Shown here piece by piece: positions 11,909 to 63,590 of a DNA stretch of 64,000 bases (positions are counted from its first letter, which is position 1; each line of letters begins with the position of its first letter). Below the pieces are notes generated by a model. The model made no database searches and was not told the origin of the DNA. It saw only the letters and a list, made by a program, of their open reading frames with translations. The stretch is taken from positions 64,001 to 128,000 of IMG/VR virus record IMGVR_UViG_3300009037_000003; one strand, given 5' to 3'. Source of the stretch: a virus. Its lineage: Duplodnaviria; Caudoviricetes. The position numbers and the translations under genes were made by a program.

Positions 11909-12919
11909 ATGGCTACAATACTGTCTGGAATACTTCGCAGAATAAACAGAGATAAAACAAAGCCGCTGAACATCTTGACTGGACTAGCACATGAGGGATA
12001 CAGCACCACCATGGCCAAAACTGGTCACGAGTTTTACTTTGTCACGAACAAGAGTTGGCCACAATGGAATGTCCAAGAAAGAGATGTGCCGTCGAATATT
12101 CATCTTCTCGGCGGGGAAGATCTAAAACGTCAATTGAACTGCGATATAACTTTTGACCTTGTACTATCTCAAAAATGTTTAGATCACTATCCAGTACTTA
12201 ACCAAGTGGCTTGTCAAATGAATATACCGCTGATCGTGTTGCATCACAGTCTGCCATGGATCCCCCCAGTCGGCAATTGGTCGTGGGAGACGGTCAAGGA
12301 TATTGGGAATCAGCGATGCGACCACAATGTATTTGTAAGTAATTTTAGCGCCGAAGCATGGGGTAGGGATTCCGACGGCGACAATATTTCTATTATTAGA
12401 CACGGCATGGATACCGAGTATTGGCAAGGATGGAGCGGCGGCGACGGCAAGATTATGACAGCCGTATGGGATTTTAAACGACGCGATTCAGTTTGTGGCT
12501 ATTCGTTGTTCCAAGAGGTTACACGTGATTTGCCAGTTAACATCTGGGGCGATTCCCCAGGCGTTTCTGTTATGGCTAAGAACCGCGATCATCTTCGGGA
12601 CTTATATCGGCAAGCTTCGGTATATTTTAATAGCACACTTTGGTCGTCGTGCCCATTTTCGCTACTTGAAGCAATGTCAGTTGGATGTCCGATAGTCACT
12701 ACAGCAACTACCATGATGCCAGAATTCATCCGCGATGGCGTAAATGGTTTTGTATCAAACGACCCAGGAGTTTTGAGGGAAAAGTTGTCGTTGCTTATTT
12801 CCGACCCAGTACTCGGCAAGCAGATAGGCGAAGCTGGTCGACGAACAATACTTGAATTATTCAACGAATCGCAATTTATAAATAAGTGGAATGCTGTTTT
12901 TAATACCGTTATGGAATAA
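11909..12919 (+). CDS. Glycosyltransferase family 4 (GT-B)
   Basis: IRHGMD, LLEAMSVGCPIV and IRDGVNGF. Confidence 0.9.
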   Translation: MATILSGILRRINRDKTKPLNILTGLAHEGYSTTMAKTGHEFYFVTNKSWPQWNVQERDVPSNIHLLGGEDLKRQLNCDITFDLVLSQKCLDHYPVLNQVACQMNIPLIVLHHSLPWIPPVGNWSWETVKDIGNQRCDHNVFVSNFSAEAWGRDSDGDNISIIRHGMDTEYWQGWSGGDGKIMTAVWDFKRRDSVCGYSLFQEVTRDLPVNIWGDSPGVSVMAKNRDHLRDLYRQASVYFNSTLWSSCPFSLLEAMSVGCPIVTTATTMMPEFIRDGVNGFVSNDPGVLREKLSLLISDPVLGKQIGEAGRRTILELFNESQFINKWNAVFNTVME

Positions 12920-33696: not shown

Positions 33697-36600
33697 CTAT
33701 GACACAGTGCTTTCAAACGTATTGGCAAGCTCCGAATTACTAGATGCTCTTGCCAATTTCTGCAAAACTTCATTGATTTGCGCTTTGGCAATTCTTGTCG
33801 CTATGCTTTCGAACTCGGCAGTAAATTCTTTAGCTGCTGCCCCAACTCCTTGAACATCGACTTTGATCGTGCTAATCGTTTCGAGATCTATTCCGAGACC
33901 TTCTTCAAGAGCTCCTGCTATCCGAGTCATCCCGTCGTTCAATCCAAGCATTGCAGTTTGTGATTGACTGGACACAGTTGTATTTTCAGCGATAATGGCA
34001 GTATTTTCGGATAAGCCAGGAATTTCGGGAACTATTGGTGGTGCTTGAACTGCCAAAGTAGCCGTTTGGGTCTCGACAGCACGAGCAACGGCATCCATTC
34101 TGTCGCCAAGGCTATTTACCGCAATTGTTGTTTCGGTAACAGCTTCTCTAACGCCTTCACCTCCGGAAACTACATTACTTGTTTCCTGCAATTCGGGCGC
34201 AACTTGTCTTTGTACGTCTATAACGGTTTGCATCTGGTATGCGGCTTCTGCTAATCTTTGACTGGCTGCTAAAACATCAGAACCACCACTCTGAATGTCA
34301 GTTGATGCCGTTAATATTCTGTCAGCCGACGATGATGTTAGCGATGCTGCGGTTGCTGTTTCTATTGCAGCCTGCTGTATTTGAGATGCCGAAACCACTT
34401 CGTCATCCAACGGCTGATATACAGGAGTAGGAGATGGTAAAACTTGTTCGGTTGGAATCGATGACAGATTTTGTAAGTATTGTTTTAAAGCAGGCGATAA
34501 CTGATCGGATATCAATTCTGGCTTATCCGCAACTTCTGGTCTTGCTATTAACGTTTCGAGACTTTCGCGGAGATCTGTTACGGTCCGTTGTAGTATACCT
34601 ATATTTTCTACTTCCTTCGCACCTAATTCAGTAGATTGTAGCTTCAACCGTTCCAACGCTTGATTAACAATCTCTGTGGAATCTAGACCGCTGTCCTGAA
34701 TCTGTTTGGCTAGCTCTGACCCTGATCCATCAAAATTACGAAAACGATCAGCTATCGCCATAAGTGCGGCGCTATCGCCGGTAAGCGACGCATCAGCCTG
34801 CCCCGCTTTCTCTATCGCAAGTTGATTAGCAGCAGACGATAAGGCCGCAATAACTTTGTCCATACTAGCCCCGAATAGAGCCGATTGCAAGTGTTCAGTT
34901 TCGAGTTGTTGTGTCTGTGGCGATTTCTCGACTGGGAGTTGTGATTCGACCCTGGTCCCACTACCACTTAACACCTTTGCGCCAGCTAACAGATGCTCGA
35001 CAGTTAGAGCTTCGGTAAATATGTGTACAGCATCAGCACTTTTTCTTAGGGCTTCCGCAAAAATATCAGCCGGTTCCTTATATACCTGAGCAACCTCTAT
35101 TGCTGCACCAGCTTCGATAAATTGTCTTTGCCGCTGGATGTATTCAGACATCTCCTTACTGCTCTGATCTAGGTTCGCAACAAATTTCTGAAGACCTACT
35201 GGTTCTGTTGGTATCTGCCATGGAGTAAAAAATGTCTCGCCAGTTTCTTGAGCCAACTTCCGTTTCTCTAATAATTCAGTTAATGCTTGCGGAGCTTGCT
35301 GAGCGGCTTTTTCTAGTTGGGTTAGAGCTATTTGCAAATTTACCACCTCAACAGCTGCCCGCTTATATGCCTGGAATAGCTCTATCGTGACCCCTTCCCC
35401 GGTCTGCTGTGCTTCTGATACACTACGAACAAGCTCGGCATATCTTGCATAACTGTCTTTGTATTTATCCATCGTACGGCCAACCAGATCGCTGCCGTCG
35501 GCGATATTGATCAGGGCGCTGGTGACTTCTCCCGTACTGCTAGCGTAATCTACCGGCAATTGATGCTGGATGCCGGATAGATCCAATGCTTGTCCGAGAC
35601 TATGAACAAGTGTGTCTTTTAATTGCGTAGTACCAACATCAACATTGCCAAGCAACTCTTCGCCAGACAGGGAAAGGTTAAGTTGCTGAACCTGTGCATC
35701 AAGCCACGTTTTAAAAACATTCACGGCGGCTTCGTAGAACGGTTGTTGTTTCCCCAATACGGATTCAAAGGCGTGCTGGACCTCTTCTGCTGTGGGTAAA
35801 ACGCCAGCCTGTTCTGATAGCATCACATTCAGTTGTCCTCCAAGATTTTGTGCTGCCGTCCTGAATGCGTCCACGGCGTCTGGAGGTAGTTGTTGTGGAT
35901 ATTCGCTGATAAACTGATCTATATACTCGTTAATGATATCGAATGGATCTACTTTCTGATCAACAATCCTAGATCTGAGTGAATCAGCCTGCGCTTTGCT
36001 TGCGATAATCGATTGCATGAAAGTTTGTAGGGCTTTGCCAACACTGGCCATATCGGTCGTAAAACCTTCTAGCTCGCTGAATTGGCTCAAATCTATTAGA
36101 TCACCAGTTTTCCCTTCTCTGAATATTTGCTCAACAGCTTTGGTAGTAAATTCTCCTTCTGGCTTAACAATTCCTACGCTCCTGCCAACATTTTGGCTCA
36201 ATTGATCAAACAAGGTCACATTCATTTCTATCGATTTTGCTGCTCTACCAACTGCTTCGCTCAGTAAGCCAAGTTGACTGCTCAGCTCGGCTGGTGTATA
36301 GAATTCTTCAAAACTTTTTGCTACTTTTTCTATAGCTTTAGTTAATTGGAGCGACTGCTTATCTATTTTGATATTAGCAAACGATTGCGACACCTTTTCC
36401 AGGCCGCCGAGTTGTTTAATCATAGCCTGTCTCAATGCCGCCGCAGCTTCGGCGCTAGCACCCGACTCTTTCATGAAGACTTCGTCCAACGAGCTTTCGA
36501 TGTTAGCGCTACCGAATTCTTCTATGGCTTTTCGAAGAATATTATTCAGCAATTGAGGATTAGCCCCAACTATATCGTCGATGATCTGAGTCGCTTGCGT

Positions 36601-38721
36601 ATCGCTTATTGTGACCAATCCTTCGCCTTTAAAAAGGTTTGCTACCCGTTCATAGCTAGAAGCGAAAAATCCACTTAAGCCGTCTTCGTATCTTTTTGCC
36701 GTTTCTGTGATTCCAGACAAAGTATCGCGACCTAGCTGACCAGCCGTTTTCTCCAGATCACCCGTTGTCTCTATCGGTTCAATTGATGCTTCGGATACTT
36801 TCTTGGTGACTGCCTTGATTATACCCTGGACATCTGAATCGACTGCCTGAACAGAGGCATATGTCAGCGCGCCGAGAGCCACTACGGCGGCTGTTGCCGC
36901 TGCGCCAACTGGACCTAGCGCCGCGACAAGCCCCCCTATCGCACCAGTAACACTTTGGCCTGTCAGCAAAGACGTGACAAGCAACATAGTTCCAACCGCT
37001 TTAACGAACTCGGAAGCTAGAAGACCCGACGATCTTCCTGTCTCGGCGAATGATTCGGATAAAGAAGATGCTGCCGTAATGATACCGGCAACAACAGCTA
37101 GTTGCCCCAATTGAGATGTTGCCAGTGTTTTAGCTCCTTGGGCGAGCTTAGCACCGGCTCCTGCAGCTACTGCTGTGGTTGCACCAGATGCGCCAGCGGC
37201 CTGGGTTAAACCAGTTTTTGCCGTAGCGCCTGCAACACCACCGCTACCTATAGCTGCCTGGAATGACGGGAGTATACCAAAACTTACCTTCGATAATCCG
37301 CCAATTGCAGCACCAACCCCAGATATGCTCAATGCTAGAATCTTGAATAAACCAGCATAACCGACTAATGTAGCCATTACTGGAAGTACTGGCCTGATTG
37401 CGTCCAGTATCGTTACAAACGCATGACCAGCTTCTGTCGCATGTTTGATTAGTGGAATGAAAAATGGTTGCGCTAATTCTTGAACCAACCTGCCGAACTC
37501 TGCTCCTAGAATACTCAATTGAGCGTACAGACTCTTCAATCCCTCTTGAGCAACCTTATCGAACTCTCCGCTTGACGAAGCGGCTGCCCGCAGTGTCTCA
37601 TCCAGTAACTTGGTGTTGTTTACCAATGCAAGCAGACGGCTAACTTGTCGTTGCCCGCCAAGCTTGTTGGCTATTTCCATCTTTTCTTGCACTCCGGTTA
37701 TGTTTGCAAGCCCTGCGGCGATTTGTTTGAAAGCGGAAACCGGATCACCTGCCTGAATCGCTTCTCCTATCCTAATCCCCTTCCCTGCCAAAAACTCTAC
37801 TATCTTTGGGTCGGCCAATCTAGCAGAAATCGTCTTCAGGAACGTACCAATTGATTCCGCTCCTTCTCTGGTAACGTGTCTAATTGTCGTAAATATAGCG
37901 GCAAATTCTTCGTAAGAACCGCCAATGGCCGCAAAAGCAGCACCGCCACGAGCAACACCCTGGGCAATATCTTGTGATTCAACAGCAAACTTATTCGACA
38001 ATACTGTCATTACATCTAGAACTTTAGTAGCAGTAAGTCCTTCGCTGCTAAACTGGTTGAGCGCCGCGATCGTCCCCTCTATAGCGACATCCATCGACTC
38101 GAATGTCGGAGCTAGAGGAATTTTCGAAAGAATAGAAACAGTCTCGTCCAATTGTTTGCCAGTATAACCGGCCTGAGCCATTACCTTAGCGACTCTTGAT
38201 ATCTCAGATGTTGCCGTTCCTGTCGCAACAGAGAGGTCGAGAATATTTGTGCGGATTTCATTAATCCGTTGATCCGTTTCTCCTGTAATCTGTTTTAACT
38301 GAACCATCGAATGGTCCAACTCGATAACAGAGTTGGTCGCTTGAGATAACCCCTTCAGAGCTAGTAGTGGACCTATCGTGGCAGAAGTATATGCAGCGTA
38401 CCTTTTGAACGCCAACTGCATGGAATCTCCGAAGTCTTTAGCCCGAACAGTAGCCCTACCCATCGTTTGCGAAGTATTCTGAACCGTAGATGCTGTAATT
38501 TTTTGAGCAGCATTAAGCTGGTTTGTAGCAGCCATCAAGCTCTGTACAGCAGCAGCAGCACCTGTCGCCGCCGTCGCCTGAGCTTTTATTGCGCCAGCGG
38601 CACTTCCGCCTCCAGTTTGAGCCGGTTGTAATGTATTTTGCACCTGAGAAAGAGCGGCACCAACTTTCTGTAAGCCGAGGATATCTTGTATTCTCAGGTT
38701 GACATCTAATACAAACGCCAT
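33697..38721 (-). CDS. Tail tape measure protein (TP901-type core)
   Basis: 1674 aa, Ala-rich and helical; AQAG, VLDVMTVLSNKFAV, TREGAESIGTFLKTISARL, GG.RQ.SR; central hydrophobic region. Confidence 0.92.
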   Translation of the reverse strand: MAFVLDVNLRIQDILGLQKVGAALSQVQNTLQPAQTGGGSAAGAIKAQATAATGAAAAVQSLMAATNQLNAAQKITASTVQNTSQTMGRATVRAKDFGDSMQLAFKRYAAYTSATIGPLLALKGLSQATNSVIELDHSMVQLKQITGETDQRINEIRTNILDLSVATGTATSEISRVAKVMAQAGYTGKQLDETVSILSKIPLAPTFESMDVAIEGTIAALNQFSSEGLTATKVLDVMTVLSNKFAVESQDIAQGVARGGAAFAAIGGSYEEFAAIFTTIRHVTREGAESIGTFLKTISARLADPKIVEFLAGKGIRIGEAIQAGDPVSAFKQIAAGLANITGVQEKMEIANKLGGQRQVSRLLALVNNTKLLDETLRAAASSSGEFDKVAQEGLKSLYAQLSILGAEFGRLVQELAQPFFIPLIKHATEAGHAFVTILDAIRPVLPVMATLVGYAGLFKILALSISGVGAAIGGLSKVSFGILPSFQAAIGSGGVAGATAKTGLTQAAGASGATTAVAAGAGAKLAQGAKTLATSQLGQLAVVAGIITAASSLSESFAETGRSSGLLASEFVKAVGTMLLVTSLLTGQSVTGAIGGLVAALGPVGAAATAAVVALGALTYASVQAVDSDVQGIIKAVTKKVSEASIEPIETTGDLEKTAGQLGRDTLSGITETAKRYEDGLSGFFASSYERVANLFKGEGLVTISDTQATQIIDDIVGANPQLLNNILRKAIEEFGSANIESSLDEVFMKESGASAEAAAALRQAMIKQLGGLEKVSQSFANIKIDKQSLQLTKAIEKVAKSFEEFYTPAELSSQLGLLSEAVGRAAKSIEMNVTLFDQLSQNVGRSVGIVKPEGEFTTKAVEQIFREGKTGDLIDLSQFSELEGFTTDMASVGKALQTFMQSIIASKAQADSLRSRIVDQKVDPFDIINEYIDQFISEYPQQLPPDAVDAFRTAAQNLGGQLNVMLSEQAGVLPTAEEVQHAFESVLGKQQPFYEAAVNVFKTWLDAQVQQLNLSLSGEELLGNVDVGTTQLKDTLVHSLGQALDLSGIQHQLPVDYASSTGEVTSALINIADGSDLVGRTMDKYKDSYARYAELVRSVSEAQQTGEGVTIELFQAYKRAAVEVVNLQIALTQLEKAAQQAPQALTELLEKRKLAQETGETFFTPWQIPTEPVGLQKFVANLDQSSKEMSEYIQRQRQFIEAGAAIEVAQVYKEPADIFAEALRKSADAVHIFTEALTVEHLLAGAKVLSGSGTRVESQLPVEKSPQTQQLETEHLQSALFGASMDKVIAALSSAANQLAIEKAGQADASLTGDSAALMAIADRFRNFDGSGSELAKQIQDSGLDSTEIVNQALERLKLQSTELGAKEVENIGILQRTVTDLRESLETLIARPEVADKPELISDQLSPALKQYLQNLSSIPTEQVLPSPTPVYQPLDDEVVSASQIQQAAIETATAASLTSSSADRILTASTDIQSGGSDVLAASQRLAEAAYQMQTVIDVQRQVAPELQETSNVVSGGEGVREAVTETTIAVNSLGDRMDAVARAVETQTATLAVQAPPIVPEIPGLSENTAIIAENTTVSSQSQTAMLGLNDGMTRIAGALEEGLGIDLETISTIKVDVQGVGAAAKEFTAEFESIATRIAKAQINEVLQKLARASSNSELANTFESTVS

Positions 38722-41116: not shown

Positions 41117-41656
41117 TTAGAAGTACAATTTCTCTTTCAAACCAGTCGGTCTACATTCTACGATTACCAGAACTGTCACTAGAGAGCCGGTACTAACATA
41201 GGCATCCTCTACTTGCGCGCTCAAAGTAGCTCTTAGCGAACCACCCTTAGGTATCGCTACGTATGTCTGATCTAGCACATGCGTACCGTCACCTGGAGCA
41301 GCGACAGCCAAAGCGTCTGTAGCCTTATCTTTGATCGAAGCACTTGCCAATAATGTGTCCCAACCAGGTGTCGTAGGAGCAGCTGGCGATGCGTCCACTT
41401 CGTCTGATCTCTGAACGATGATTGACACAGCACCACCGGTTCCGTTAAAATCTGCTGTAGTTAGTGACTGAACGACGGCTACTACGCTGATAACTTCGAT
41501 CGGAAATGGGCAATCTTTGTTGAAGAAGTTTTCCGTATCGGTTACTGCAGTGCCCGATTCTGTAGGAGTGGCAGAAAGCGTTTTTACCATCTTAAATGTT
41601 TTGGAGGGAGGATTGCTGTTTGTTCCGAATGTGTCTGTTATTAGATTTACTGCCAT
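41117..41656 (-). CDS. Probable abundant virion beta-sandwich protein
   Basis: Ala/Thr/Val-rich 179 aa; monocistronic with its own late promoter and terminator. Confidence 0.5.
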   Translation of the reverse strand: MAVNLITDTFGTNSNPPSKTFKMVKTLSATPTESGTAVTDTENFFNKDCPFPIEVISVVAVVQSLTTADFNGTGGAVSIIVQRSDEVDASPAAPTTPGWDTLLASASIKDKATDALAVAAPGDGTHVLDQTYVAIPKGGSLRATLSAQVEDAYVSTGSLVTVLVIVECRPTGLKEKLYF

Positions 41657-41660
41657 ACTG

Positions 41661-41718
41661 AGACCTTTCTTTGCGATAAGGCCAAAAGAATTCCGATCCG
41701 ACGCCGAATCGAAGGTCT
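41661..41718 (-). promoter_or_regulatory. Structured 5' UTR (three-way junction) sequestering the ribosome-binding site
   Basis: AGACCU/AGGUCU closes hairpins CGAUUCG-GCGU-CGGAUCG and UUCUUU..AAAGAA. Confidence 0.5.
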
Positions 41719-41736
41719 AATGGATTCACCGTTATT

Positions 41737-41745
41737 ATTATACAC
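41737..41745 (-). promoter_or_regulatory. Class I (late) promoter motif GTGTATAAT
   Basis: Overlaps the RNA ligase stop codon. Confidence 0.65.
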
Positions 41746-42790
41746 AAACGTTGTTATCAGGACGAATAATCTTCATTATCAAATCGTCAAGTCTATCAGC
41801 GGCATTGTCAAAAAGAAGGAATAAGATGGCAGGATGCTTAGTCTTACTCGCCAATCTAGCAAAATCAGCACGACAACCAAGGTTCATGTTCACTAATCTG
41901 CCATAATCAGCTAGTGCCTGTTCCATGACAGATGTATATGCAGTTTCGAGAGATGATGAAATTGCCGAAAATAATCCTTGATACTCTGGGTCTATCTGCG
42001 AAGCTACGTCCGATAGTACCTTGCCATCCTTCATGTTGTTCCAAATAGCCAGAGGGGTAAGGCCGTTCAGTAGACGGTGTCGACGCATATAGTCTTCTAG
42101 TTTGAATTTAACCCGTAAACCGTTATCAAACCGAATCACATAACCTTCTTCTGTCGTGCCTCTGCCTGTCTTAATGTTTCCCTTGATGTATCCGAGCCAT
42201 GTTTTATCATAGGTTTTTACTAGACTGAAATGATATCTACTTGCCAGCTCTGACAAATACTCCCAGGAACACTCCTCTCTGGTGAATCTATCATAAGCGG
42301 CAAGTAAAATCAAATCTGTGCAACCTGCGTAATCAACAACAATTTTCGTAGCCGGACAGACGATTTCGAATAACAGGGTAAGATTTTCTGGCAAACCTTC
42401 CAGATTATATCGTTCTAGGAAATCTGTTGCCCACTTAGCCACAGCATTATCAAAAGAACCCCTGGTGGCAATACAGAATTTGCCATTATAGCGATACAAA
42501 ATCCCTAGCCATCCATCTACTTTTTCATAAATTCTGAAACCATCTTTCCAGGGCAAATTACGATCCATCGTATCGTTGCGCTGGTTGACATTAAAAAACT
42601 TGGGGAACGGCTGAGCGACAACTTCACCCGTTTTTCTGTTCAGGATAATGCCTCTCGTGTTCGAAGTAATATCGTCCCACAATTTGCAGGTATCGAGATA
42701 GTTGTAGATACGCAGATCGCCCATGTCCTGATGTCGCAATAGCTTTCTGGCGACATAATCATCTCTTATTGTTACGTGGTCATAATTCAT
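41738..42790 (-). CDS. T4 Rnl1-family RNA ligase
   Basis: RGII...PFPKFFN, motif I EKVDG, ATRGSF, LLFEI, motif IV EGYVI, motif V RVKFK. Confidence 0.88.
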   Translation of the reverse strand: MNYDHVTIRDDYVARKLLRHQDMGDLRIYNYLDTCKLWDDITSNTRGIILNRKTGEVVAQPFPKFFNVNQRNDTMDRNLPWKDGFRIYEKVDGWLGILYRYNGKFCIATRGSFDNAVAKWATDFLERYNLEGLPENLTLLFEIVCPATKIVVDYAGCTDLILLAAYDRFTREECSWEYLSELASRYHFSLVKTYDKTWLGYIKGNIKTGRGTTEEGYVIRFDNGLRVKFKLEDYMRRHRLLNGLTPLAIWNNMKDGKVLSDVASQIDPEYQGLFSAISSSLETAYTSVMEQALADYGRLVNMNLGCRADFARLASKTKHPAILFLLFDNAADRLDDLIMKIIRPDNNVCV

Positions 42791-42984
42791 TTTTTATCGT
42801 CTCGGTGTTCGAAATAATGGATCTGTGCGAGCCGTTCCTTCGCTTCTTTCTCTGTCGCATAACAGCCTAATTTGTTGCCAGTCTTGCCGTATACGCAATA
42901 TGGTTTCCGCGAAGAACCATTTTTCCTTATAACGGCCTGAGCTGAATTCAGAGCTTTTATTAGTTCGTCGATCCAGTCCGTCAT
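42787..42984 (-). CDS. Small phage protein
   Basis: AAGGAG Shine-Dalgarno; IRK.G....YCV...G.KLGCY.T...A..RL.QI motif. Confidence 0.6.
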   Translation of the reverse strand: MTDWIDELIKALNSAQAVIRKNGSSRKPYCVYGKTGNKLGCYATEKEAKERLAQIHYFEHRDDKK

Positions 42985-42994
42985 ATAAAACTCC

Positions 42995-43138
42995 TTACAT
43001 ATTGTCGTACATCAATTCCAGACAGACGTCCCAATCGTTTTCACACGCAGTAATATCGTACCCCCCGACATTCTCTAGCAATGTGCATCCGCTCAGAATT
43101 ATACATACAGCTACAAGCCATAGTCTCTTATCCCGCAT
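42995..43138 (-). CDS. Small lipoprotein (47 aa), absent from the ORF track
   Basis: MRDKRLWLVAVCIILSG|C: basic n-region, hydrophobic h-region, LSGC lipobox; AAAGGA Shine-Dalgarno; fills the gap between neighbours. Confidence 0.7.
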   Translation of the reverse strand: MRDKRLWLVAVCIILSGCTLLENVGGYDITACENDWDVCLELMYDNM

Positions 43139-43325
43139 TGTTTTTTCCTTTTTTCTTAAGATGCCTCGGTTTCTTCATTGGAGGGAACATCTGATAGATT
43201 TCTGACGCAGATAATTTGTCCAATTCGGATAGCCATGATCTTTCAACTGCTTCCGTCCAAACGTTCGGCGAATTCAAATATGATAATACTTCATGGTCTA
43301 TTGGCTGCTGCTTCTTGATTCTCAT
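43128..43325 (-). CDS. Hypothetical protein
   Basis: AAGGAG Shine-Dalgarno; 65 aa; basic C-terminus. Confidence 0.6.
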   Translation of the reverse strand: MRIKKQQPIDHEVLSYLNSPNVWTEAVERSWLSELDKLSASEIYQMFPPMKKPRHLKKKGKNNAG

Positions 43326-43353
43326 TTCGTTACTCCTTTAGGTCATTTTCGAC

Positions 43354-43490
43354 TGGCGACAGGCGGATTCGAACCGACCACCCCATGTTTTCCCTCTTTG
43401 GTCCTAGTAGATACGAGGACGGACTTACGGGGATCAAACCGAATGATTGCTCTCCAGAGCAGCGCCGCCTAACTATGGCGCTTTGTCGCC
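43354..43490 (-). ncRNA. Non-canonical tRNA-like RNA (137 nt)
   Basis: 7-bp acceptor GGCGACA/UGUCGCC plus A discriminator, D-like arm with GG, GGUUCGAAUCC T loop; three internal hairpins instead of one anticodon arm. Confidence 0.75.
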
Positions 43491-43787
43491 TCAGAATGAC
43501 AAATAGCATATCCACCACAAGGATAGCATGACAGTAAAAGTTATGCTGAATGAATTTGCGAATTTTGCCAACCACGTTCCACGTCTTTTGGTTACCGCAA
43601 AGAAAATAGCATAGCATGAGATACAGGTAATAGCGATTTTGAAAACCACTAACCCATAAAGACCATAACTACGCCATATATTATCGGCTATCGGATTAAG
43701 TTCTACGAAGTATGGATTAATGGCATCGCAGTGAATCGTTGCCAGAAGATCTATAATTGATATTAATAGTACCGAAATATAAGCCAT
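43491..43787 (-). CDS. Small three-TM membrane protein (DUF5658-like)
   Basis: IDLLAT...ELNP.A...G...LVVFK pattern. Confidence 0.6.
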   Translation of the reverse strand: MAYISVLLISIIDLLATIHCDAINPYFVELNPIADNIWRSYGLYGLVVFKIAITCISCYAIFFAVTKRRGTWLAKFANSFSITFTVMLSLWWICYLSF

Positions 43788-43796
43788 AAGTCACAT

Positions 43797-43832
43797 AAAA
43801 AAACGGGGCTGATCGCGATGGATGAGCCCCGT
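43797..43832 (-). terminator. Intrinsic terminator / attenuator
   Basis: ACGGGGCT-N14-AGCCCCG followed by T7. Confidence 0.8.
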
Positions 43833-43898
43833 GGTCATAAGGTAGCGAAATCCTGCAGAATGGCGTAACGTGACGCCTGCCCACTGCATTATGATTTC
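43797..43898 (-). ncRNA. Candidate small RNA or attenuator leader (about 100 nt)
   Basis: Bounded by a class I promoter and a terminator; nested stems UGCAG/CUGCA and GGCGU/ACGCC. Confidence 0.5.
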
Positions 43899-43903
43899 AA
43901 CTG

Positions 43904-43912
43904 ATTATACAC
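43904..43912 (-). promoter_or_regulatory. Class I (late) promoter motif GTGTATAAT
   Basis: Intergenic copy of the motif. Confidence 0.7.
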
Positions 43913-43940
43913 CACGACATCCAATCTACTAACTATTTTG

Positions 43941-44222
43941 TTATATTTTGCAACAACGTAGATATTCTTTCCAAATTGCCGCACGGAAAGACTTGTCGAA
44001 CTTTTTGATTGCTCTTGTAAGCGACTTCTTTCTGCCCTCGGCCTTGCAGAAGTTATCATCAGGATGACAATTGGCTTCGGCTACGCTGATAATCTTATCT
44101 CGTCGATATCCATTCGAGTCATCGTCTGGCCTCATTTGATACACAGTCGCTACTGTACGGCGGTCTGTTTCGTAGTGAAATGAAATAGAGGAAATTTGCC
44201 CGTTGTGTTTAACCAATATCAT
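43941..44222 (-). CDS. Hypothetical phage protein
   Basis: GGAG Shine-Dalgarno; A.CHPDDNFCK..GRK.SL.RA motif. Confidence 0.65.
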   Translation of the reverse strand: MILVKHNGQISSISFHYETDRRTVATVYQMRPDDDSNGYRRDKIISVAEANCHPDDNFCKAEGRKKSLTRAIKKFDKSFRAAIWKEYLRCCKI

Positions 44223-44257
44223 TTTATTGCTCCAAAAATCATATTATCTACCATCCT

Positions 44258-44286
44258 ATTATACGCCTATATCGCCCGTATCTTTC
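44258..44286 (-). promoter_or_regulatory. Class II promoter GAAAGA-N17-TATAAT
   Basis: Directly after the tail-tube terminator. Confidence 0.55.
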
Positions 44287-44325
44287 AAAAAAAACAAGGA
44301 TGGAGAGTCGAAACTCTCCATCCTA
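44287..44325 (-). terminator. Intrinsic terminator of the major tail gene
   Basis: AGGATGGAGAGT-TTCG-ACTCTCCATCCT, then TG and T8. Confidence 0.9.
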
Positions 44326-44347
44326 GCTGTTTTGTCTAATTTTATTG

Positions 44348-45463
44348 CTATTGACCAGCGGGATCCTGTGGGTGTGTTACAGTGAGAGTATTGAAGTTGC
44401 TATAATTAAGTGTTACTGCAACAGACCCGCCGCTAGCATCGCCGCCACCGTACGTGATAGAAGTAAGTTTGTTTTTTGTACCAAGGTTAATCTGTGTACC
44501 TTCTTCTATCCAGATGAAAATCTTCTGATTCGTAAGGTTACTGCCACTTGGAGGATCGGCTAGTGCGTCGATCAAATCGCCTTCTTGTGTCGTCATCTCG
44601 ATAGCACATGTAACCTCGATCGGGAATGATACGAATCGATGATATGGGCCGCGACGTCCAAGTTCGAACAGGTCCTCGCGACCAAGATCGGCAGAAATCG
44701 TAACGTTCTGAATGTGAGCAGCATAGGAAGAACCAGACAGAAGGTTGTGACCGTTACTGTCTATGCCTTCCATTTCTGTTGGCCAAATCGAACCGCTAGT
44801 GCCTGTGATAACACCATTATTGTCCATTGAACAACCGTCGCCCATCAAAATATTTTCTCTTCTAGCTACACCACCAGACGAAGTGATAGACAAAGGCTCG
44901 TCTGAACCGGTAAATTCTGTCGGAACAAAGTGTGTTAATCCGCCCGCGACCCATTGCTTGTTGTTGCCTACGAGTGTAAGATCTTCGGTGAAATTCCCAT
45001 CCACCGGAAGCGTATATGTGAGAGCCGATGTGTATAGGCCGGAAAGACCGACACCCTGGTTCGCTATGCCGGACGCATTATCGTTGGTGTCCGGATACAA
45101 GTTCAGGGCCATGAAGCATCTATCATTTGCTCGTCCAGCTAATGTCGGAGACGTTGCAGTCGGCGTAGCTAGGTGATATAGTAATGGGTGTCCATCAAGT
45201 AGTTTCTGCAGTGTTACTTCTATATCGGGAATACCCTCGATGTTTTCATAAAGTTCCAGTTGACCAAGTTCAAAAACTTGTTCAAGATTGAACGTGGTAG
45301 TGATTCCAACACTCTGTACGCCATGTGCTGTTACAAAACCAGATGGGTGCGTTCCGGAGCCAACAACCTCGCATCCGCCGACTCCAGTCGGACAAACCGA
45401 ATCGTGCGGCGCAAACCCAACTGCCTGCAAAGCATAGAACAATCTATTACTCATATTTGACAC
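44348..45463 (-). CDS. Major tail (tube) protein
   Basis: GVQSVGITT.FNLEQVFELGQ and duplicated IQNVTIS..LGREDLFELG; own promoter and strong terminator; synteny. Confidence 0.7.
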   Translation of the reverse strand: MSNMSNRLFYALQAVGFAPHDSVCPTGVGGCEVVGSGTHPSGFVTAHGVQSVGITTTFNLEQVFELGQLELYENIEGIPDIEVTLQKLLDGHPLLYHLATPTATSPTLAGRANDRCFMALNLYPDTNDNASGIANQGVGLSGLYTSALTYTLPVDGNFTEDLTLVGNNKQWVAGGLTHFVPTEFTGSDEPLSITSSGGVARRENILMGDGCSMDNNGVITGTSGSIWPTEMEGIDSNGHNLLSGSSYAAHIQNVTISADLGREDLFELGRRGPYHRFVSFPIEVTCAIEMTTQEGDLIDALADPPSGSNLTNQKIFIWIEEGTQINLGTKNKLTSITYGGGDASGGSVAVTLNYSNFNTLTVTHPQDPAGQ

Positions 45464-58105: not shown

Positions 58106-60172
58106 CTATGAAACATAACTCGCCCATGTACAAATGGACAACATTCTACGTTCAGATAATGTTGGCGACCTATTGGTGGAGCCAACAAATGACGACAATA
58201 ATTCCTCGAATAGTCCGTTAAACTCTACTGGTTTCGTAGACGCTATGGCTAGTCGCGAGGCAATGAGTTGGTCGGTTATCTCGTCACCAGGAAGCATGAC
58301 AGACAAGATAGCATGTTTCGTTTGTTCGAGCTCGCGTTTTTGGGCGTTTGTAAGCGACCTAATATTTTTCACGCCGTGCAGCTTCAAGTAGTTGGTATCT
58401 ACAATCCTGTCTATTCCGTTATACAAGTTCTCTCCAGCGATATTCAGTAGAGACATCGTCTTTGGAGTTCGAGAGTCTCTTGGCCCAGTGTCCTTAGTCG
58501 ATGGTGGCCTACCTGGACCGTTGATACCATCATTTCTCGGCTGGTCACCAACCAAATTGTCGCCACCGCCAGATTGCTTACTTTGTTCCAGTTTAATAGC
58601 TAATTCTGTCTGTTTCTCCAGTAGCGAAAATGGTCGGTAGTATGGGTTTGATTTTTCAAGGATCCCTGGATTCTCTAGCCTAACTTGCTGTTCGTCCTTC
58701 ATTCGTTCTAGCTCGATCATGTAGTTTACTCCGAACACCTCTGTAGCCTTTTCGGATGAGATAATTCCACGATCTAGCAACTGAATCATTAATTGCTTTT
58801 CAGCCGCTTCGTCTCGAAGAGACATGGTTCCAAAGCAAATAGATGGAATATTTTTGAACCCCATGGCGTCGGCCACTCGTCTTAGTTCGGCTTCGAGCCA
58901 CACGATAGCTCTGCCTCTTACGTATTCCAATCTTTCTACCAATGTTTTTAGTTGTACAAATGCAGACTGAGCGTTTCTCGTACCAAGATCCTCGCCGCCA
59001 ACTAGCGAGTCGGGGATGCCGAGACCTCTTACGATATCGGAATTAACGCTTTTATACTTGTCCTGGCCGAGAATTTTATCCGTAGGAGGATACTCTACTT
59101 TTAGGTCGATCATGTCGTTCCAGACCAGATCCATGACTCCGCCGCCGACATTGCTCTGTAGAATTTCGATTAATTTATCCACAGCGGCTGGAGTTGGCAA
59201 AATCTGCTGATCACTCTTGCCGAGCTTCCATAATCGTATGACGTTAATAACACCATCTAGCGCAGCCATATCTGCCAACCGCATTTTGCTTTTTAACATG
59301 ATGTCTTCTAAGACACCATACAGGAATGGGGTCCCCCAATCCTCCCAGTCGTCCTTTTTATAGTAATCAACGTACATTCTGTCCATCTCTAGCTGGACAA
59401 AGGATGAACCCTTCTTTACGGCTTCGACTACTTCTGCTGGCATCTTCTGGACCAACCGAGCTTCTGCATCGGTAGTTGGATTTTTTATTGCCTTAGATAG
59501 CGATGACGGGATTTTCATCCCGAGAGAATCAGAACCAAAAAACTTACCAATTTCACCGCCGGTCTTTTCAACAATCGCCGGAGAGATAAAGGTATATTTC
59601 CACGGTATAACTCGCTTATTGCTAAACTTTTTCGTGACTTTTAGCTTTTCCGGAACCTCATCATACGCCGTTTCATCTAGCGATTCCAAATTAAGAACAT
59701 TACCCTTAACTAGTTCTTTCTCAACAGGAACGGTTATATAGGCATTCTTTCGTCTGACGATAACGTTGGCGTCTCTCATAAGCAGTTTCATAAAATCATG
59801 AACGCGACCAGCGAGATCGACTTTCTTGGCCCATTGGCGATAGAATTTTTGCTGTTTTTTGATCGGGTGCTGGAGCTCTAATCCCTCAGAGGCAAAATCC
59901 GTCATTAGATCTATTATGTTTCTTACCATGCCAATCTTTCTGTACACACTTTGGCATGCCAATATTACTTCGGAGTGTTTGGTGGGAAGCTTATCATCTA
60001 ACCGTTTCGAATCCATGTCATAGCGATTGAAACCAGACCTATCATTTATCGTTGCCCCAGCTGCCTTATGTGTAAAACAGCACGACTTAGGTATCGTATG
60101 CTGTTCTAATCCTTGCTGACCTGTTGTAAACAGGATGTCGTTCCCTTGATTCTTCTCACTATCTGCTGTCAT
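58106..60172 (-). CDS. Portal protein
   Basis: Y...G.VRNIIDLMTDF; follows the terminase; 688 aa; C-terminal GRP motif. Confidence 0.82.
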   Translation of the reverse strand: MTADSEKNQGNDILFTTGQQGLEQHTIPKSCCFTHKAAGATINDRSGFNRYDMDSKRLDDKLPTKHSEVILACQSVYRKIGMVRNIIDLMTDFASEGLELQHPIKKQQKFYRQWAKKVDLAGRVHDFMKLLMRDANVIVRRKNAYITVPVEKELVKGNVLNLESLDETAYDEVPEKLKVTKKFSNKRVIPWKYTFISPAIVEKTGGEIGKFFGSDSLGMKIPSSLSKAIKNPTTDAEARLVQKMPAEVVEAVKKGSSFVQLEMDRMYVDYYKKDDWEDWGTPFLYGVLEDIMLKSKMRLADMAALDGVINVIRLWKLGKSDQQILPTPAAVDKLIEILQSNVGGGVMDLVWNDMIDLKVEYPPTDKILGQDKYKSVNSDIVRGLGIPDSLVGGEDLGTRNAQSAFVQLKTLVERLEYVRGRAIVWLEAELRRVADAMGFKNIPSICFGTMSLRDEAAEKQLMIQLLDRGIISSEKATEVFGVNYMIELERMKDEQQVRLENPGILEKSNPYYRPFSLLEKQTELAIKLEQSKQSGGGDNLVGDQPRNDGINGPGRPPSTKDTGPRDSRTPKTMSLLNIAGENLYNGIDRIVDTNYLKLHGVKNIRSLTNAQKRELEQTKHAILSVMLPGDEITDQLIASRLAIASTKPVEFNGLFEELLSSFVGSTNRSPTLSERRMLSICTWASYVS

Positions 60173-60227: not shown

Positions 60228-63200
60228 CTAAAGAATTTTTCCGTTCTTTATCGCCCTCGTCAGACTGCCGTCTTTCAGAAATTGTCCGTTGATCAGTCTA
60301 CCAACGCCGGGACCTCGATAGAAAGGTTCTTTGACTGGAATAAGATTTCCCCTAGATCGGTTGTCGCCAGCTGAATCGTAATCCATCGGTTCTACTATTG
60401 TAACTGATTGATCATAAATAAATTTATACCCAAGCAAAAGTGATGTGTATCTATCTTTCCGCAAACGACCGCGACGGGCACGACCCTCCATCGCTCCAGC
60501 CTGTGCAACTTGCGGAGTATCGAATCGTTCTTTGCCGCTCATAGTTTCAGACATCTGTATGGTACATAATTCATTTTTTAACTCTTCGATATTCAATACG
60601 ACATCCTCGTAGGTGTCACACATAATACCAGCGGCCTTTTCCGCTTCAAGTGCCAAATACATTCTAACACTGTCAAAACATGGAAATAATAAAGTATGGG
60701 TTTCGAACGCTTTGTGCAAAGCCATATTTGCCTGATGGTTGAATTCGCTAGATTGTTTGACAAGGTGTAGTATGTGCTTGCCATCTGTTTCACCGTCAGT
60801 CGGCTTCGGGGCAGTATTGTCTATTATTTCATATATCGGGAAATCCCCTTGAGACATATCCATTAGTTTCTTATTTCGAAGCATTTCGGAAATTACGTAG
60901 CCGCCGCCCTGACTATCCATTTCAATCCTAATAGGATTAAACGCCTTTACGATATCTCTTATCTTTGAACAACAATAGGCGTAATAGTCCCCAGCTAGAA
61001 TCAGCCCCCTCTTTTGGCGATCGGCAAATTCCTTCTTGTTAACGGCCCAGCAATATACGACTCTGTTATGAGCTGGCCTTAATTCGATACATGTTACAGC
61101 AAGATTATCTCGTTCCGCTGCCGGATCAATACCGATGGCGTACCTACAATTTTCCTGTCCTGCTATTAACGGAGAGAATGACACAGGACCATCGGGAGTT
61201 TCTATTGGTTTGCTTGGCGTAACGGTGCAGCTTTCTATCAGACTCCTTGGATATATGCCATCCGAATCCTTAACAAAAACAGCCCCAAACTCCATCTGAT
61301 ATACATTTTTGGGCAGCGTTGCTTTTGCGTTAGCCAATTGTCTGGCATCAAGCAATCCGTCTGGCAGCGCCGTGTGTGGAATTCTAATAACGGCATAGTC
61401 GCGATAATCGAAATTGTCGGGGACATTGTGCTCGCCGCCAAAGATACTTGCAATAATCTTCGGATCGCCCTTGCTTTTTACGATATTTCTCCACATATCG
61501 TATTTAACTGCAAAGTGATTAAATGCGTAATATGCGGTTCCCGAATAAATAATTTGGTTACCATGATTCGACGCTTCTGGTTTCAAAATCGCATCCCGTT
61601 CTTCCGACGGCAAATCAAGTTGGGCTATCTGTTTTTCTAGATCGATTCTCTTAGCCTGCTCAACTGGAGTTTTCGACGTAGCGGCGAAACCGCGAACAAC
61701 AACGTCGAAAATATCCGAGGGGATACTGGCACACTCGTCTGCAATTACGCATGTTGCGCGAAAGCCCCTGATTCTCGTATTGTGGCTATAAAAACCTCCT
61801 GCGCAATATTCATGTCCATTCGGTACATGCATATCGAACGTAACACATTCCGAATCCTCTATGGAAACAATTTCGTCATAATAAATATCTGGGTCGGCAA
61901 GACAACGAATGTTGTCGATACGGGAATCGTTCGTATGGCCATAAACTTTCAAAAATTTATCAACAAGCGGATGACTAGCAGATTTCTTAATCCGCAATCG
62001 CCCAGGGCAGACTTGGGTACAACAACCGGTATGCCATTTTGGCTTATTATTCTCTGCGATCTCTATCATATCGTCAAGGATATCTGGAATGGAGTCTTTC
62101 TGATCCATCCATCTCTTTTTTCCAGAGATGCCAGCGAGAAGTTTATCCTGTTTCCTCTTGAGTCGGAATCCTATTTCTGTTGCAAACGTTAAAACATCTT
62201 TACCTGTAATCAAAAGTTCATAACATTCCTCCCATTTTTCGTTTCGCTCACGAGAACTTACATGTGCAACTATCCCGTAATGCAATAAAATGTACTGAAG
62301 TTGTCTTACCAGTTCTTTACTGGTGTTGCAAAAACTAACCGTGATCGCGGTACCACCCTTTGCGTTTTGAACCTGAATGCATCCATCGGTATCCAAAAGT
62401 CCAGAGATAAAGGCAGAAGTGACCTCACGAGAAGATTTCAGAATAGCAGCAGGAAATTGTTTGTCTTTTGTTCTTAAATGATCTATCTCTATTCCGAATT
62501 TTCTGAATAAATTATCGATCTTACGGGAACAATACATATTCCAATGTACAGGATCAGATGGCTGTTGTCTAAATTCACCAAGAATTTGTATAGCATTAGA
62601 CAATTCTTGATCTTGTGTTGCAAATCCTATTCGGTATCCCTGTTGAGCGATAAAACATCCATCTCCGATTAATAAACCTATCCCGTATGCTTCATCGCAT
62701 GTTATATCAGTTACACCACTGTGCCATCTTATAGAACGATCCAAAAGAATTTTGTCCCCTAGCTGCATTTCATCCATTCTTGCCCATACTATTTTCTTGT
62801 CCCTCATAATTTTAAGTTTATGGTTGTGTGTACCTTCAATCTCGAATCCGTGGTGTGTTTTGATTTTTTTTGTCTTAGCAAGACCATTGCAATAAGATTC
62901 ATCTGTTACTCTGAACTCCCCATTGCCCCAAATTTTTCTCTGACGATTAATTATTGTTTTTTCTATTTGTCCTTGTATCTGATCATCATCTATGTAACCA
63001 AAGCAATTGTCATAAGTCATTACTGTATAACGACTTACGCAGCCATCGCCGAGCGGCAACGCGTACACAATACTATCGCCAACTTTGAAATAGCATAGGT
63101 CTACAGACTGTCTTGGGCCAGCCTTTCGTCCACCTCCAACAATACTTCTAAGAACTGGACTAGAATCCCAGATACTTTCGATATAGTTAAATACCAGTTT

Positions 63201-63590
63201 CGCCTGCCGGAGTCCTGCACCAACGATGATGATCTTGGAACCAGGATCAAAAATCGCCCTTAGAATCGAATAAACGGCCAACATAAATGTTTTCGACGCA
63301 CCACGGCTGGCGACAAGCAAAGGAAATGGCGTATTCCATAATGCCTTCAAAACAGTCATCTGAAATGGAAGCAAATCGATATTCAAGAGGACTTTTACGG
63401 TCCATCCAAGATAATCTAGATTGAGCATAGTTTTAACTATAGCACGATCTATTGGTTCTCCATCGCGTCCGAGATCGGAGAAAACATGTTCAACTACGGA
63501 CGGAACATGATGAGAATACGGAAATAAATACCCGAATTTTCCCTGAGGTCCGTGAAGTAATTTCTTTAATGCGATGTCTGAGGTACCCAT
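60228..63590 (-). CDS. terL: Terminase large subunit, intein-containing
   Basis: L.PFQ, Walker A SRGASKT, RQAK, IRG.RA...IADE Walker B, nuclease IGIDPA and KDRY; about 699 aa after splicing. Confidence 0.93.
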   Translation of the reverse strand: MGTSDIALKKLLHGPQGKFGYLFPYSHHVPSVVEHVFSDLGRDGEPIDRAIVKTMLNLDYLGWTVKVLLNIDLLPFQMTVLKALWNTPFPLLVASRGASKTFMLAVYSILRAIFDPGSKIIIVGAGLRQAKLVFNYIESIWDSSPVLRSIVGGGRKAGPRQSVDLCYFKVGDSIVYALPLGDGCVSRYTVMTYDNCFGYIDDDQIQGQIEKTIINRQRKIWGNGEFRVTDESYCNGLAKTKKIKTHHGFEIEGTHNHKLKIMRDKKIVWARMDEMQLGDKILLDRSIRWHSGVTDITCDEAYGIGLLIGDGCFIAQQGYRIGFATQDQELSNAIQILGEFRQQPSDPVHWNMYCSRKIDNLFRKFGIEIDHLRTKDKQFPAAILKSSREVTSAFISGLLDTDGCIQVQNAKGGTAITVSFCNTSKELVRQLQYILLHYGIVAHVSSRERNEKWEECYELLITGKDVLTFATEIGFRLKRKQDKLLAGISGKKRWMDQKDSIPDILDDMIEIAENNKPKWHTGCCTQVCPGRLRIKKSASHPLVDKFLKVYGHTNDSRIDNIRCLADPDIYYDEIVSIEDSECVTFDMHVPNGHEYCAGGFYSHNTRIRGFRATCVIADECASIPSDIFDVVVRGFAATSKTPVEQAKRIDLEKQIAQLDLPSEERDAILKPEASNHGNQIIYSGTAYYAFNHFAVKYDMWRNIVKSKGDPKIIASIFGGEHNVPDNFDYRDYAVIRIPHTALPDGLLDARQLANAKATLPKNVYQMEFGAVFVKDSDGIYPRSLIESCTVTPSKPIETPDGPVSFSPLIAGQENCRYAIGIDPAAERDNLAVTCIELRPAHNRVVYCWAVNKKEFADRQKRGLILAGDYYAYCCSKIRDIVKAFNPIRIEMDSQGGGYVISEMLRNKKLMDMSQGDFPIYEIIDNTAPKPTDGETDGKHILHLVKQSSEFNHQANMALHKAFETHTLLFPCFDSVRMYLALEAEKAAGIMCDTYEDVVLNIEELKNELCTIQMSETMSGKERFDTPQVAQAGAMEGRARRGRLRKDRYTSLLLGYKFIYDQSVTIVEPMDYDSAGDNRSRGNLIPVKEPFYRGPGVGRLINGQFLKDGSLTRAIKNGKIL
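61779..63041 (-). mobile_element. Intein (421 aa) with LAGLIDADG endonuclease in the terminase
   Basis: LGDG|CVS..., GTHNHKL, IGLLIGDG, FISGLLDTDG, TFDMHV...FYSHN followed by Thr. Confidence 0.93.

Follow-up and report, generated by a model that had tools for sequence, protein, structure and literature searches.

A 64,000-nucleotide stretch of virus DNA (the window), covering bases 64001-128000 of the single 139,974-bp virus contig IMGVR_UViG_3300009037_000003, carries between two structural genes an accessory island composed of a tRNA-like RNA, a leader RNA, several small protein genes and an RNA ligase gene. Judged from gene content and gene order, an uncultured lineage of ~140-170-kb phages conserves this island as a hot-spot of accessory genes in its tail module, and sequence comparison and covariation make of its tRNA-like RNA a well-supported, real conserved family, a new non-coding RNA without an Rfam match. 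We read the island, with a confidence that stands about midway between doubt and certainty, as a mosaic hot-spot of counter-defence and tRNA- or RNA-maintenance genes whose parts would serve as separate tools and not as one RNA-centred system. The contig is classed as linear and estimated to be 84% complete; the genome holding the window is designated G000, and coordinates are window positions unless marked as genome or contig positions. No close relatives were found by megablast and tblastn against 50,697 phage records.

A conserved family of tRNA-like RNAs

The tRNA-like RNA extends over 137 nt (43354-43490, minus strand), its first base lying directly after the stop codon of a gene for a 98-aa membrane protein. 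Its tRNA-like fold is within 0.8 kcal/mol of the minimum free energy. The acceptor stem has 7 bp, of which the first five pairs are conserved apart from a one-sided change of the first and of the third pair, in one sequence each, the D arm has 5 bp with a loop reading GUUAGG, or GUUGGG in the related genomes G011 and G012, and the T arm is canonical with a conserved GGUUCGA motif. The position of the anticodon arm is taken by a 4-bp hairpin with a loop of 4-5 nt (UGGA or AGGUA), after which come a variable segment or hairpin and then a long branched arm bearing GGACCAA or GGACUAA, which ends 1-2 nt before the T arm; this extension amounts to 70-100 nt. A GGYGG/CCRCC helix that covaries between two sequence groups would form a plausible pseudoknot with the long arm. 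The discriminator base is A in five sequences, including that of the window, and G in two, position 3-70 is C-G (U-G in one sequence), and no CCA is encoded by the RNA gene, as is also the case for the phage's own tRNA genes. Because the predicted structure has no anticodon loop, the RNA cannot decode.

Conservation of the RNA was first apparent at short evolutionary distance. The whole island is 91% identical in the Logan contigs L001/L002, and among the 91%-identical contigs L001-L003 the RNA differs by 2 substitutions in 137 nt while its flanks diverge by about 9%, the conservation ending exactly after GTCGCCA. Covariance models, R1 built on the tRNA-like fold and R2 being the refined model, then identified orthologues of 138-171 nt at larger distance, in G001 (43.2 bits), in G002 (34.6 bits) and in the metagenome contigs L146/L149 (37.5 bits), and with the refined model in G012 (33.4 bits) and G011 (31.9 bits), these last two having been reached via the motif of the leader RNA described below. 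Strict and loose viral motif scans and one metagenome scan returned RNA members only in G001, G002 and L146/L149, and R2 applied to 81 further loci and five more phage records found ordinary tRNAs only. The 91% identity of the island in the closest contigs, with so few changes in the RNA, together with synteny in five further lineages, indicates that the island is more than a chance assembly.

Across the seven distinct RNA sequences, 90.4% of the cells were paired and 26 of the 42 pairs showed changes on both sides. Control alignments with slid partners gave 32-47% pairing and no more than 10 two-sided pairs, and none of 500 shuffles reached the observed value. The acceptor, D and T helices (helices 1, 2 and 8) were paired at 98%, 90.5% and 94%, respectively, with compensatory changes in each. 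Such changes can be seen by eye in hairpin A, which reads GCUC/GAGC, UUGU/GCAA, CUGC/GCAG or CGAC/GUCG, and also in the D and T stems. The tRNA-like RNA that an earlier note had proposed from the sequence of the window is thus upheld by its orthologues in the five other lineages, by covariation and by its low rate of change.

Known RNA families did not account for this element. ARAGORN made no call, and no Rfam family was matched either at the gathering threshold or at an E-value of 10. Identity with transfer-messenger RNA (tmRNA) was rejected, as the RNA has no G3-U70 pair and no tag reading frame and the window gave no ARAGORN or Rfam tmRNA call; no tmRNA was detected elsewhere in G000 at the gathering threshold. 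In its intron mode, ARAGORN proposed a tRNA-Asp(atc) at 43354-44842 (minus strand) with a 1395-nt intron, which joins the 3' half of the RNA to sequence of the 371-aa gene and was judged spurious. An intron-bearing tRNA was also dismissed, no arm containing a conserved 7-nt anticodon loop and the window's loop UUCGGUU being missing from the relatives. Nor does the RNA appear to derive from a particular phage tRNA, for it has no special similarity to any tRNA of G000, G001 or L149. In G001, L149 and G011 it is the last member of a tRNA array, located 2-3 nt after tRNA-Glu in G001 and L149. G011 also contains, 6-8 kb downstream of the RNA, two long tRNA-like elements of 135-155 nt (contig positions L161:1501-1655 and L162:1501-1635), each with two T-arm-like GGUUCGA motifs, which by their sequence may be interrupted or composite tRNA genes.

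Synteny of the island in related phages

The genes of 371 aa and 179 aa that border the island in the window have orthologues that enclose it also in G001, G002, G011 and G012 (160-168 kb, 96-100% complete), and the fragment L149, whose flanks were not recovered, has the same island genes in the same order. The shared arrangement is leader and membrane protein, RNA, Acb4-like protein, a 65-aa protein of the SPN type, lipoprotein and a 65-aa protein of the MTDW type; the gene for the Acb4-like protein, of 93 aa in the window, is directly 3' of the RNA in G001, L149, G011 and G012 and upstream of it in the window. Around this common set, variable extras were observed: tRNA clusters, tmRNA, PRTase, an NgrRnl-type RNA ligase with a DUF6899 protein, a cREC domain, radical SAM genes and homing endonucleases. 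The window's island is the shortest version among the complete islands compared.

The small proteins behave as members of this common set. The 98-aa membrane protein (43491-43787), whose open reading frame (ORF) encodes three hydrophobic segments, has no match in Pfam, PHROG or PADLOC and has orthologues in G001, G002, L149 and G011, each behind the same leader. The first 65-aa ORF (43128-43325), of the SPNxWT...FPPMKKP family, has a Shine-Dalgarno sequence AAGGAG 28 nt after the RNA, and same-order orthologues in G001, G002, L149, G011 and G012, with no family match. The 47-aa lipoprotein (42995-43138; lipobox LSGC, three conserved Cys) has orthologues in all lineages, while the second 65-aa ORF (42787-42984), of the MTDW...KPYCVY family, has orthologues in G001 and G011, no significant family match, and a stop codon that overlaps the start of the ligase gene (ATGA). 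PADLOC found no match among the island proteins.

Several neighbours of the island genes in relatives deserve mention in their own right. Directly before the island lipoprotein of G002 comes a 137-aa protein (L143:9011-9616, plus strand) whose N terminus has a hydrophobic segment, and the two resemble an i-spanin/o-spanin pair; the window has the lipoprotein alone. In L149 a phage tmRNA (RF00023, 125.8 bits, E 1e-49; L149:5493-5843, minus strand), on which ARAGORN was silent, is located between the membrane protein and the PRTase gene, and a 125-aa cREC_REC protein (PF20274, 7.6e-13; L149:1978-2355, minus strand) is encoded two genes after the RNA. According to predictions, the cREC domain serves RNA ligases by opening 2',3'-cyclic ends. 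In G001 three ORFs of 229-270 aa without family assignment (L144:10332-11144, 12103-12792 and 8333-9061, minus strand) are inserted between the structural genes that flank the island, one of them with HNH-like cysteine motifs; all of these inserts are absent from the window, and the region is therefore a target of mobile elements.

Borders and setting of the island

All the parts that the earlier note had listed were recovered, in place, on the minus strand, as are the borders and flanking genes given here. Upstream, the island is bounded by the 371-aa structural gene (44348-45463) and the intrinsic terminator that follows it (44297-44324; 12-bp stem with 6 GC pairs, T8 tail). The 93-aa ORF comes next (43941-44222), followed by an extended -10 promoter box, TGTATAAT (43904-43911), the leader, the membrane protein gene, the tRNA-like RNA, the three small ORFs and the ligase gene (41738-42790). 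A terminator with a 9-bp stem and a T-rich tail (41692-41713) closes the island, and the 179-aa structural gene (41117-41656) forms the downstream flank. With one promoter box and with internal and end terminators, the layout reads as one putative operon behind the leader and a separate 93-aa gene in front.

The flanking genes had been taken by the earlier note for tail-tube and other structural genes. The tail setting is supported by a 1674-aa tape-measure protein (33697-38721; PF10145, E 2.1e-18), encoded after genes of 179, 387, 108 and 302 aa. As the tape-measure gene is thus four genes downstream of the island, the island is inside the tail morphogenesis module. No support was obtained for a role of the 371-aa and 179-aa proteins as sheath or tube: neither protein had family matches, searches of PDB sequences gave nothing useful, and the fold prediction of the 371-aa protein from a 6-sequence alignment failed (pLDDT 28.6). 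Further upstream are the portal gene (58106-60172, minus strand) and the large terminase gene (60228-63590, minus strand), and between the portal and the 371-aa gene lie many genes of structural size without family assignment. The 1120-aa terminase ORF matches terminase PHROGs and also, at residues ~170-610, HNH endonuclease, endonuclease and helicase families, which suggests that its middle part is an intein or an inserted mobile domain.

A structured leader in front of the membrane protein gene

Between the promoter box and the membrane protein gene lies a structured RNA of about 100 nt (43797-43897, minus strand), which ends in a hairpin (43804-43831) and a T7 run (43797-43803). It is made up of a closing helix, an inner helix, an invariant apical hairpin GGCGU/ACGCC, a conserved single-stranded UUCGCUACCUU motif, the terminator hairpin and U7, the terminator standing directly before the ribosome-binding site of the membrane protein. 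The leader is conserved by alignment in the window, L001, G001, G002 and L149 and by motif in G011 and G012, and the -10 box is near-invariant across lineages (TATAAG in L149). The closing helix covaries, GAAAUC/GAUUUC against GAACGA/UCGUUC, and the orthologues of the window, G002 and L149 take a similar shape when folded singly (z -2.0 to -2.5 over the orthologues folded); that of G001 shares the apical hairpin and the terminator, with a shifted closing helix. No Rfam family was matched, the best hits being terminator-driven (12-14 bits, E 0.8-9). These features would suit a leader that acts as a free small RNA as well as one that works as an attenuator or a riboswitch-like gate. The sole exact 11-mer complement of its single-stranded motif elsewhere in the genome, AAGGTAGCGAA, is at genome position 54350 on the plus strand (window -9650), with ~0.07 such matches expected by chance; a small-RNA target at this site is possible, weakly so.

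A probable distant relative of Acb4

A word-indexed homologue search with the 93-aa ORF returned only itself, and a profile search for its family gathered 1755 relatives. In the family alignment (A14), 5 of 58 members match PF13876, which is the Acb4 anti-CBASS sponge family (PMC11722364), and 11 of 58 match PF08962. The family profile searched against PDB sequences found Acb4 of phage SPO1 (9e4w_A, E 2.3e-5), and the same protein was the best fold match of an AF2 model of the 93-aa protein (pLDDT 87.9), with a Z-score of 5.8 and a root-mean-square deviation of 3.3 Å over 64 residues; Foldseek compared model and Acb4 with a probability of 0.97-0.99 and E-values of 0.03-0.1. Profile and model together suggest that the 93-aa ORF is a distant Acb4/PF13876/Rv2632c-like relative and a candidate cyclic-nucleotide sponge. 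It is through this protein that the island keeps something of the anti-defence character that the earlier note had given it; the further idea of a single RNA-centred system is less well supported, the parts looking more like a mosaic of separate genes.

An Rnl1-type RNA ligase with no kinase partner found

T4 Rnl1 repairs tRNA cut by the anticodon nuclease PrrC, with Pnk as its partner in the pathway. The 350-aa ligase of the island had been assigned to the Rnl1 type by the earlier note, and the assignment was confirmed: the protein matches PF09511 (62.5 bits, E 7e-17; curated cut-off 28.3) and phrog_562 (1.6e-51), and its nucleotidyltransferase residues (the KxDG lysine of motif I, and motifs IV and V), K90-x-D92-G93, E142, E215-G216 and K228/K230, are invariant among 33 homologues. 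The family profile aligns with the T4 Rnl1 structures 2c5u/5tt6/9do4 (E 2e-37) over residues 32-331 of 374, so that most of the C-terminal domain is covered and the last ~40 residues are outside the alignment. A scan of viral contigs with the single protein found nothing, and an alignment-based scan yielded at least 509 confirmed contigs of the ligase family in many phage architectures. The ligase is variable, with ~50% identity or less even among its own metagenomic relatives. In its closest relatives the gene adjoins co-oriented tRNA genes (in L007 a tRNA-Arg ends 31 nt before the ligase, in L011 three tRNAs begin 6 nt after it), and some homologues carry fused metallophosphoesterase or P-loop kinase domains. 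Motifs and profiles, tRNA gene neighbours and fused domains fit a role of the ligase in RNA or tRNA repair, the sort of role that has been reviewed for large phages (PMC7824862).

The observation that no Pnk partner is present in the window holds across the whole 140-kb contig, at its estimated completeness of 84%. An AAA_33 match in G000 was considered as a Pnk and rejected, being an AAA+ ATPase. Pnk was not found in G001, G002 or G011 either; G012 alone has one, far from the island. G000 contains a 200-aa metallophosphoesterase in its tRNA region (genome 19.5-20.1 kb) and no cREC domain.

The phage group also has a second ligase, of the NgrRnl/Rnl5 type, encoded at genome ~26.1-27.1 kb in G000 and within the island in G002, G011, G012 and L149. 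Its full length can be matched to NgrRnl (5cot, E 3e-13), and it combines an OB domain at the N terminus with PF09414. Outside the window, at genome 25069-27084 of G000 (L145:4-2019), a MiaB/RimO-like radical SAM gene (UPF0004 and Radical_SAM) is located directly upstream of this second ligase. In G001 a radical SAM gene is directly upstream of Rnl1; radical SAM genes recur as neighbours of RNA ligase genes.

Linkage of the RNA with RNA ligases

Each of the six lineages with the RNA also encodes an ATP-dependent RNA ligase 0.4-6.3 kb away from it, and the family of this ligase changes from one lineage to another. In the window genome Rnl1 is 0.56 kb from the RNA and the NgrRnl-type ligase 80 kb away; in G001 Rnl1 is at 6.3 kb and there is no NgrRnl-type ligase; in G002 Rnl1 is 80 kb away and the NgrRnl-type ligase 0.5 kb upstream of the RNA; Rnl1 is absent from G011 (97% complete), whose NgrRnl-type ligase is ~1.2 kb upstream; G012 has both in the island; and in the fragment L149 the NgrRnl-type ligase is 0.6 kb upstream and Rnl1 was not seen. 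The RNA is in turn lacking in complete phages with more distant ligase copies (G005, G006, G008 and G009). Since G011 does without Rnl1, G002 has it 80 kb away and these four ligase-bearing phages do without the RNA, the presence of the RNA does not depend on Rnl1, nor that of the ligase on the RNA. The co-occurrence that the earlier note had put forward for checking was therefore found in part: some RNA ligase is always near the RNA, and no single ligase family is constant. In the relatives the RNA is unlinked from Rnl1 specifically, not from RNA ligases in general.

These distances bear directly on the model of the earlier note, in which RNA and ligase form one module, either because the RNA is a decoy that is cut by a tRNA-targeting nuclease and resealed, or because the ligase matures or circularises the RNA. 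The proximity of a ligase in every lineage speaks for such a module, as do the order NgrRnl-type ligase, DUF6899, (tRNAs) and RNA kept in G002, G012, G011 and L149, the inclusion of the window's RNA and Rnl1 in one predicted operon, the cREC cyclic-phosphate-processing protein near the RNA of L149, and a bacterial parallel, the tRNA-like Y RNAs found with Ro60 in RNA-repair systems (PMC7824862). However, the ligase family near the RNA is inconstant, the ligase-bearing relatives named above have no RNA, no Pnk kinase is consistently present, and the RNA lacks an anticodon loop, where PrrC, RloC, VapC and nucleases of the colicin type usually attack. Moreover, the RNA is contiguous in the genome, so that ligation is not needed to assemble it. 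On balance we consider one joint module possible and rather unlikely.

Interpretation of the island

From the anatomy, the synteny, the RNA structures backed by covariation and the family assignments we infer expression, processing and every function in the following scheme. In the mosaic reading that we prefer, the 93-aa Acb4-like protein would sequester a cyclic-nucleotide immune signal. The promoter would drive the ~100-nt structured, terminated RNA, acting either as a free small RNA or as an attenuator that gates the operon behind it, and read-through would give a single transcript for the membrane protein, the tRNA-like RNA, the three small proteins and the ligase. Since its acceptor stem and its D/T elbow are intact, the tRNA-like RNA would be excised as a stable RNA by host tRNA-maturation enzymes (RNase P at G1, 3' trimming and CCA addition). 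It is, judging from its fold, most likely a processed tRNA mimic, which would occupy a tRNA-binding factor, the conserved extension providing specificity. Independently, the Rnl1-type ligase would reseal broken tRNA or other RNA with 5'-phosphate and 3'-OH ends, and end healing would be left to the host or to a phage phosphoesterase because no phage Pnk was found.

Several points weigh against this reading. The constant presence of an RNA ligase within 6.3 kb of the RNA may mean more than a shared location. The link to Acb4 is distant: the Z-score, taken alone, is weak, and the window protein itself has no Pfam match. A Pnk could be hidden from view because the contig is estimated to be incomplete. 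The covariation counts come from alignments fitted to the model, which favours the proposed structure. Lastly, the conserved first five acceptor pairs and several loop motifs point, by their sequence constancy, to a specific partner, which we cannot name.

A stronger version of the counter-defence idea would make the RNA a dedicated tRNA mimic, released by host processing, that would either soak up an immune nuclease directed at tRNA or be cut by that nuclease in place of real tRNA, and that the Rnl1- or NgrRnl-type ligase would regenerate, with the upstream small RNA as a second regulatory layer. We hold this to be improbable, a little more so than the module discussed above.

At the other extreme, the RNA would have no function in trans and would be a tRNA-derived RNase P signal that punctuates a polycistronic mRNA, or a decaying tRNA gene with an insertion. 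Its start right after a stop codon inside an operon agrees with this, as do its location in tRNA arrays in the relatives and the other odd or interrupted tRNA-like genes of this phage group. A cleavage signal, however, needs an acceptor stem and a T arm alone, and in this RNA compensatory changes preserve also the D arm, the tetraloop hairpin and the extension of 70-100 nt; GUUAGG/GUUGGG, UGGA/AGGUA and GGACCAA/GGACUAA are near-invariant across lineages whose ligases are ~50% identical, and purifying selection is stronger on the RNA than on the neighbouring coding sequence. For these reasons, the compensation in extension and arms and the stronger selection, both decay and a bare signal are disfavoured, and we leave this explanation a slim chance.

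Slimmer still is the chance that the RNA is aminoacylated by an anticodon-blind synthetase, either for a non-ribosomal purpose or to perturb the host's sensing of tRNA charging. The complete acceptor stem with its conserved first five pairs, the canonical elbow and a long arm at the variable-arm position, as in class II tRNAs, would suit a synthetase, but the discriminator varies (A in five, G in two), there is no G3-U70 pair, and no recognisable enzyme using aminoacyl-tRNA is encoded in the island. Least probable of all is that the ligase owes its place in the tail module to a second activity in attaching tail fibres, as in T4 gp63, its link to the RNA being incidental: its best PHROG is named 'RNA ligase and tail fiber protein attachment catalyst' and the gene is directly upstream of the 179-aa structural gene in G000, G001 and G012, but that name only repeats the annotation of T4 gp63, in G002 the ligase gene has small ORFs and tRNA genes as neighbours and is 80 kb away from the tail genes, G011 has no ligase of this type, and the family is spread over its 509 or more viral contigs in many architectures.

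It is now accepted that phages use tRNAs, RNA ligases and nucleotide sponges as weapons against the immunity of bacteria, and to our knowledge the non-decoding tRNA mimics of phages, such as RNAC and RNAD of T4, have stayed unexplained for fifty years. The tRNA-like RNA adds a second, independent family of phage tRNA mimics, backed by covariation and with a defined anatomy, whose conserved neighbourhood consists of RNA-repair and anti-defence genes and whose minimal version measures 2.6 kb. A second conserved structured RNA, the leader or small RNA, and a probable divergent branch of the Acb4 sponge family are gained along with it. In large phages that have not been cultured, the tail-module hot-spot could serve to locate counter-defence genes. 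If the RNA were a decoy or a client of the ligase, it would represent a new kind of RNA-based counter-defence.

Comparison with known systems

The closest functional precedent for the ligase is the repair of PrrC damage by T4 Rnl1 (gp63) and Pnk. The island enzyme is of the same family over the nucleotidyltransferase and most of the C-terminal domain, has intact motifs and has relatives that adjoin tRNA genes; unlike in T4, no kinase-phosphatase Pnk was found in the genome of the window or in G001, G002 and G011. The second ligase of the phage group corresponds, by its full-length match to 5cot, to the Naegleria/Deinococcus type (NgrRnl, DraRnl; Rnl5), with the differences that it is outside the window's island and that, in the island versions, it is always followed by a DUF6899 protein.

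For the 93-aa ORF the comparison is with Acb4 of the Bacillus phage SPO1. A family profile match, the top structural match, members that reach PF13876, the same size class and a phage setting speak for the link; against a close one, identity is about 16% and PF13876 is not matched by the window protein itself, nor is any other Pfam family.

Like a canonical tRNA (RF00005), the tRNA-like RNA has an acceptor stem, a D arm and a T arm, with the GG and UUCGA loops that form the elbow; it departs from the canonical form in lacking the 5-bp anticodon stem and 7-nt loop, and in being missed by tRNA finders. With tmRNA and YrlA it has in common that an acceptor/T-arm module of the tRNA kind is coupled to a large structured domain, with a possible pseudoknot, and in L149 a true tmRNA shares the same island with it. 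YrlA genes associate with the RNA-repair partners Ro60 and RtcB (PMC7824862), and the new RNA is likewise genomically associated with RNA-repair enzymes; YrlA, however, ends in a Ro-binding stem and not in an acceptor stem, and the new RNA has no Rfam YrlA match. A Ro/Y RNA system was rejected as no Ro60/TROVE gene (PF05731) was found in G000, G001 or G002.

The nearest phage counterparts are the species 1 and 2 RNAs of T4 (rnaC and rnaD), stable RNAs at the end of the T4 tRNA cluster whose function is still unknown (PMC9697503). Their size is similar (139 nt against 137-171 nt), and so is their place at the 3' end of a tRNA array, which the new RNA occupies in G001, L149 and G011; the 3' 92 nt of rnaC include an acceptor and a T arm of tRNA-like form. 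Homology with rnaC was rejected, R1 giving it 13.9 bits, below two ordinary T4 tRNAs. In the new RNA, unlike in these T4 RNAs, the whole molecule is closed by the acceptor stem, the D arm is complete and the inserted domain is a different one.

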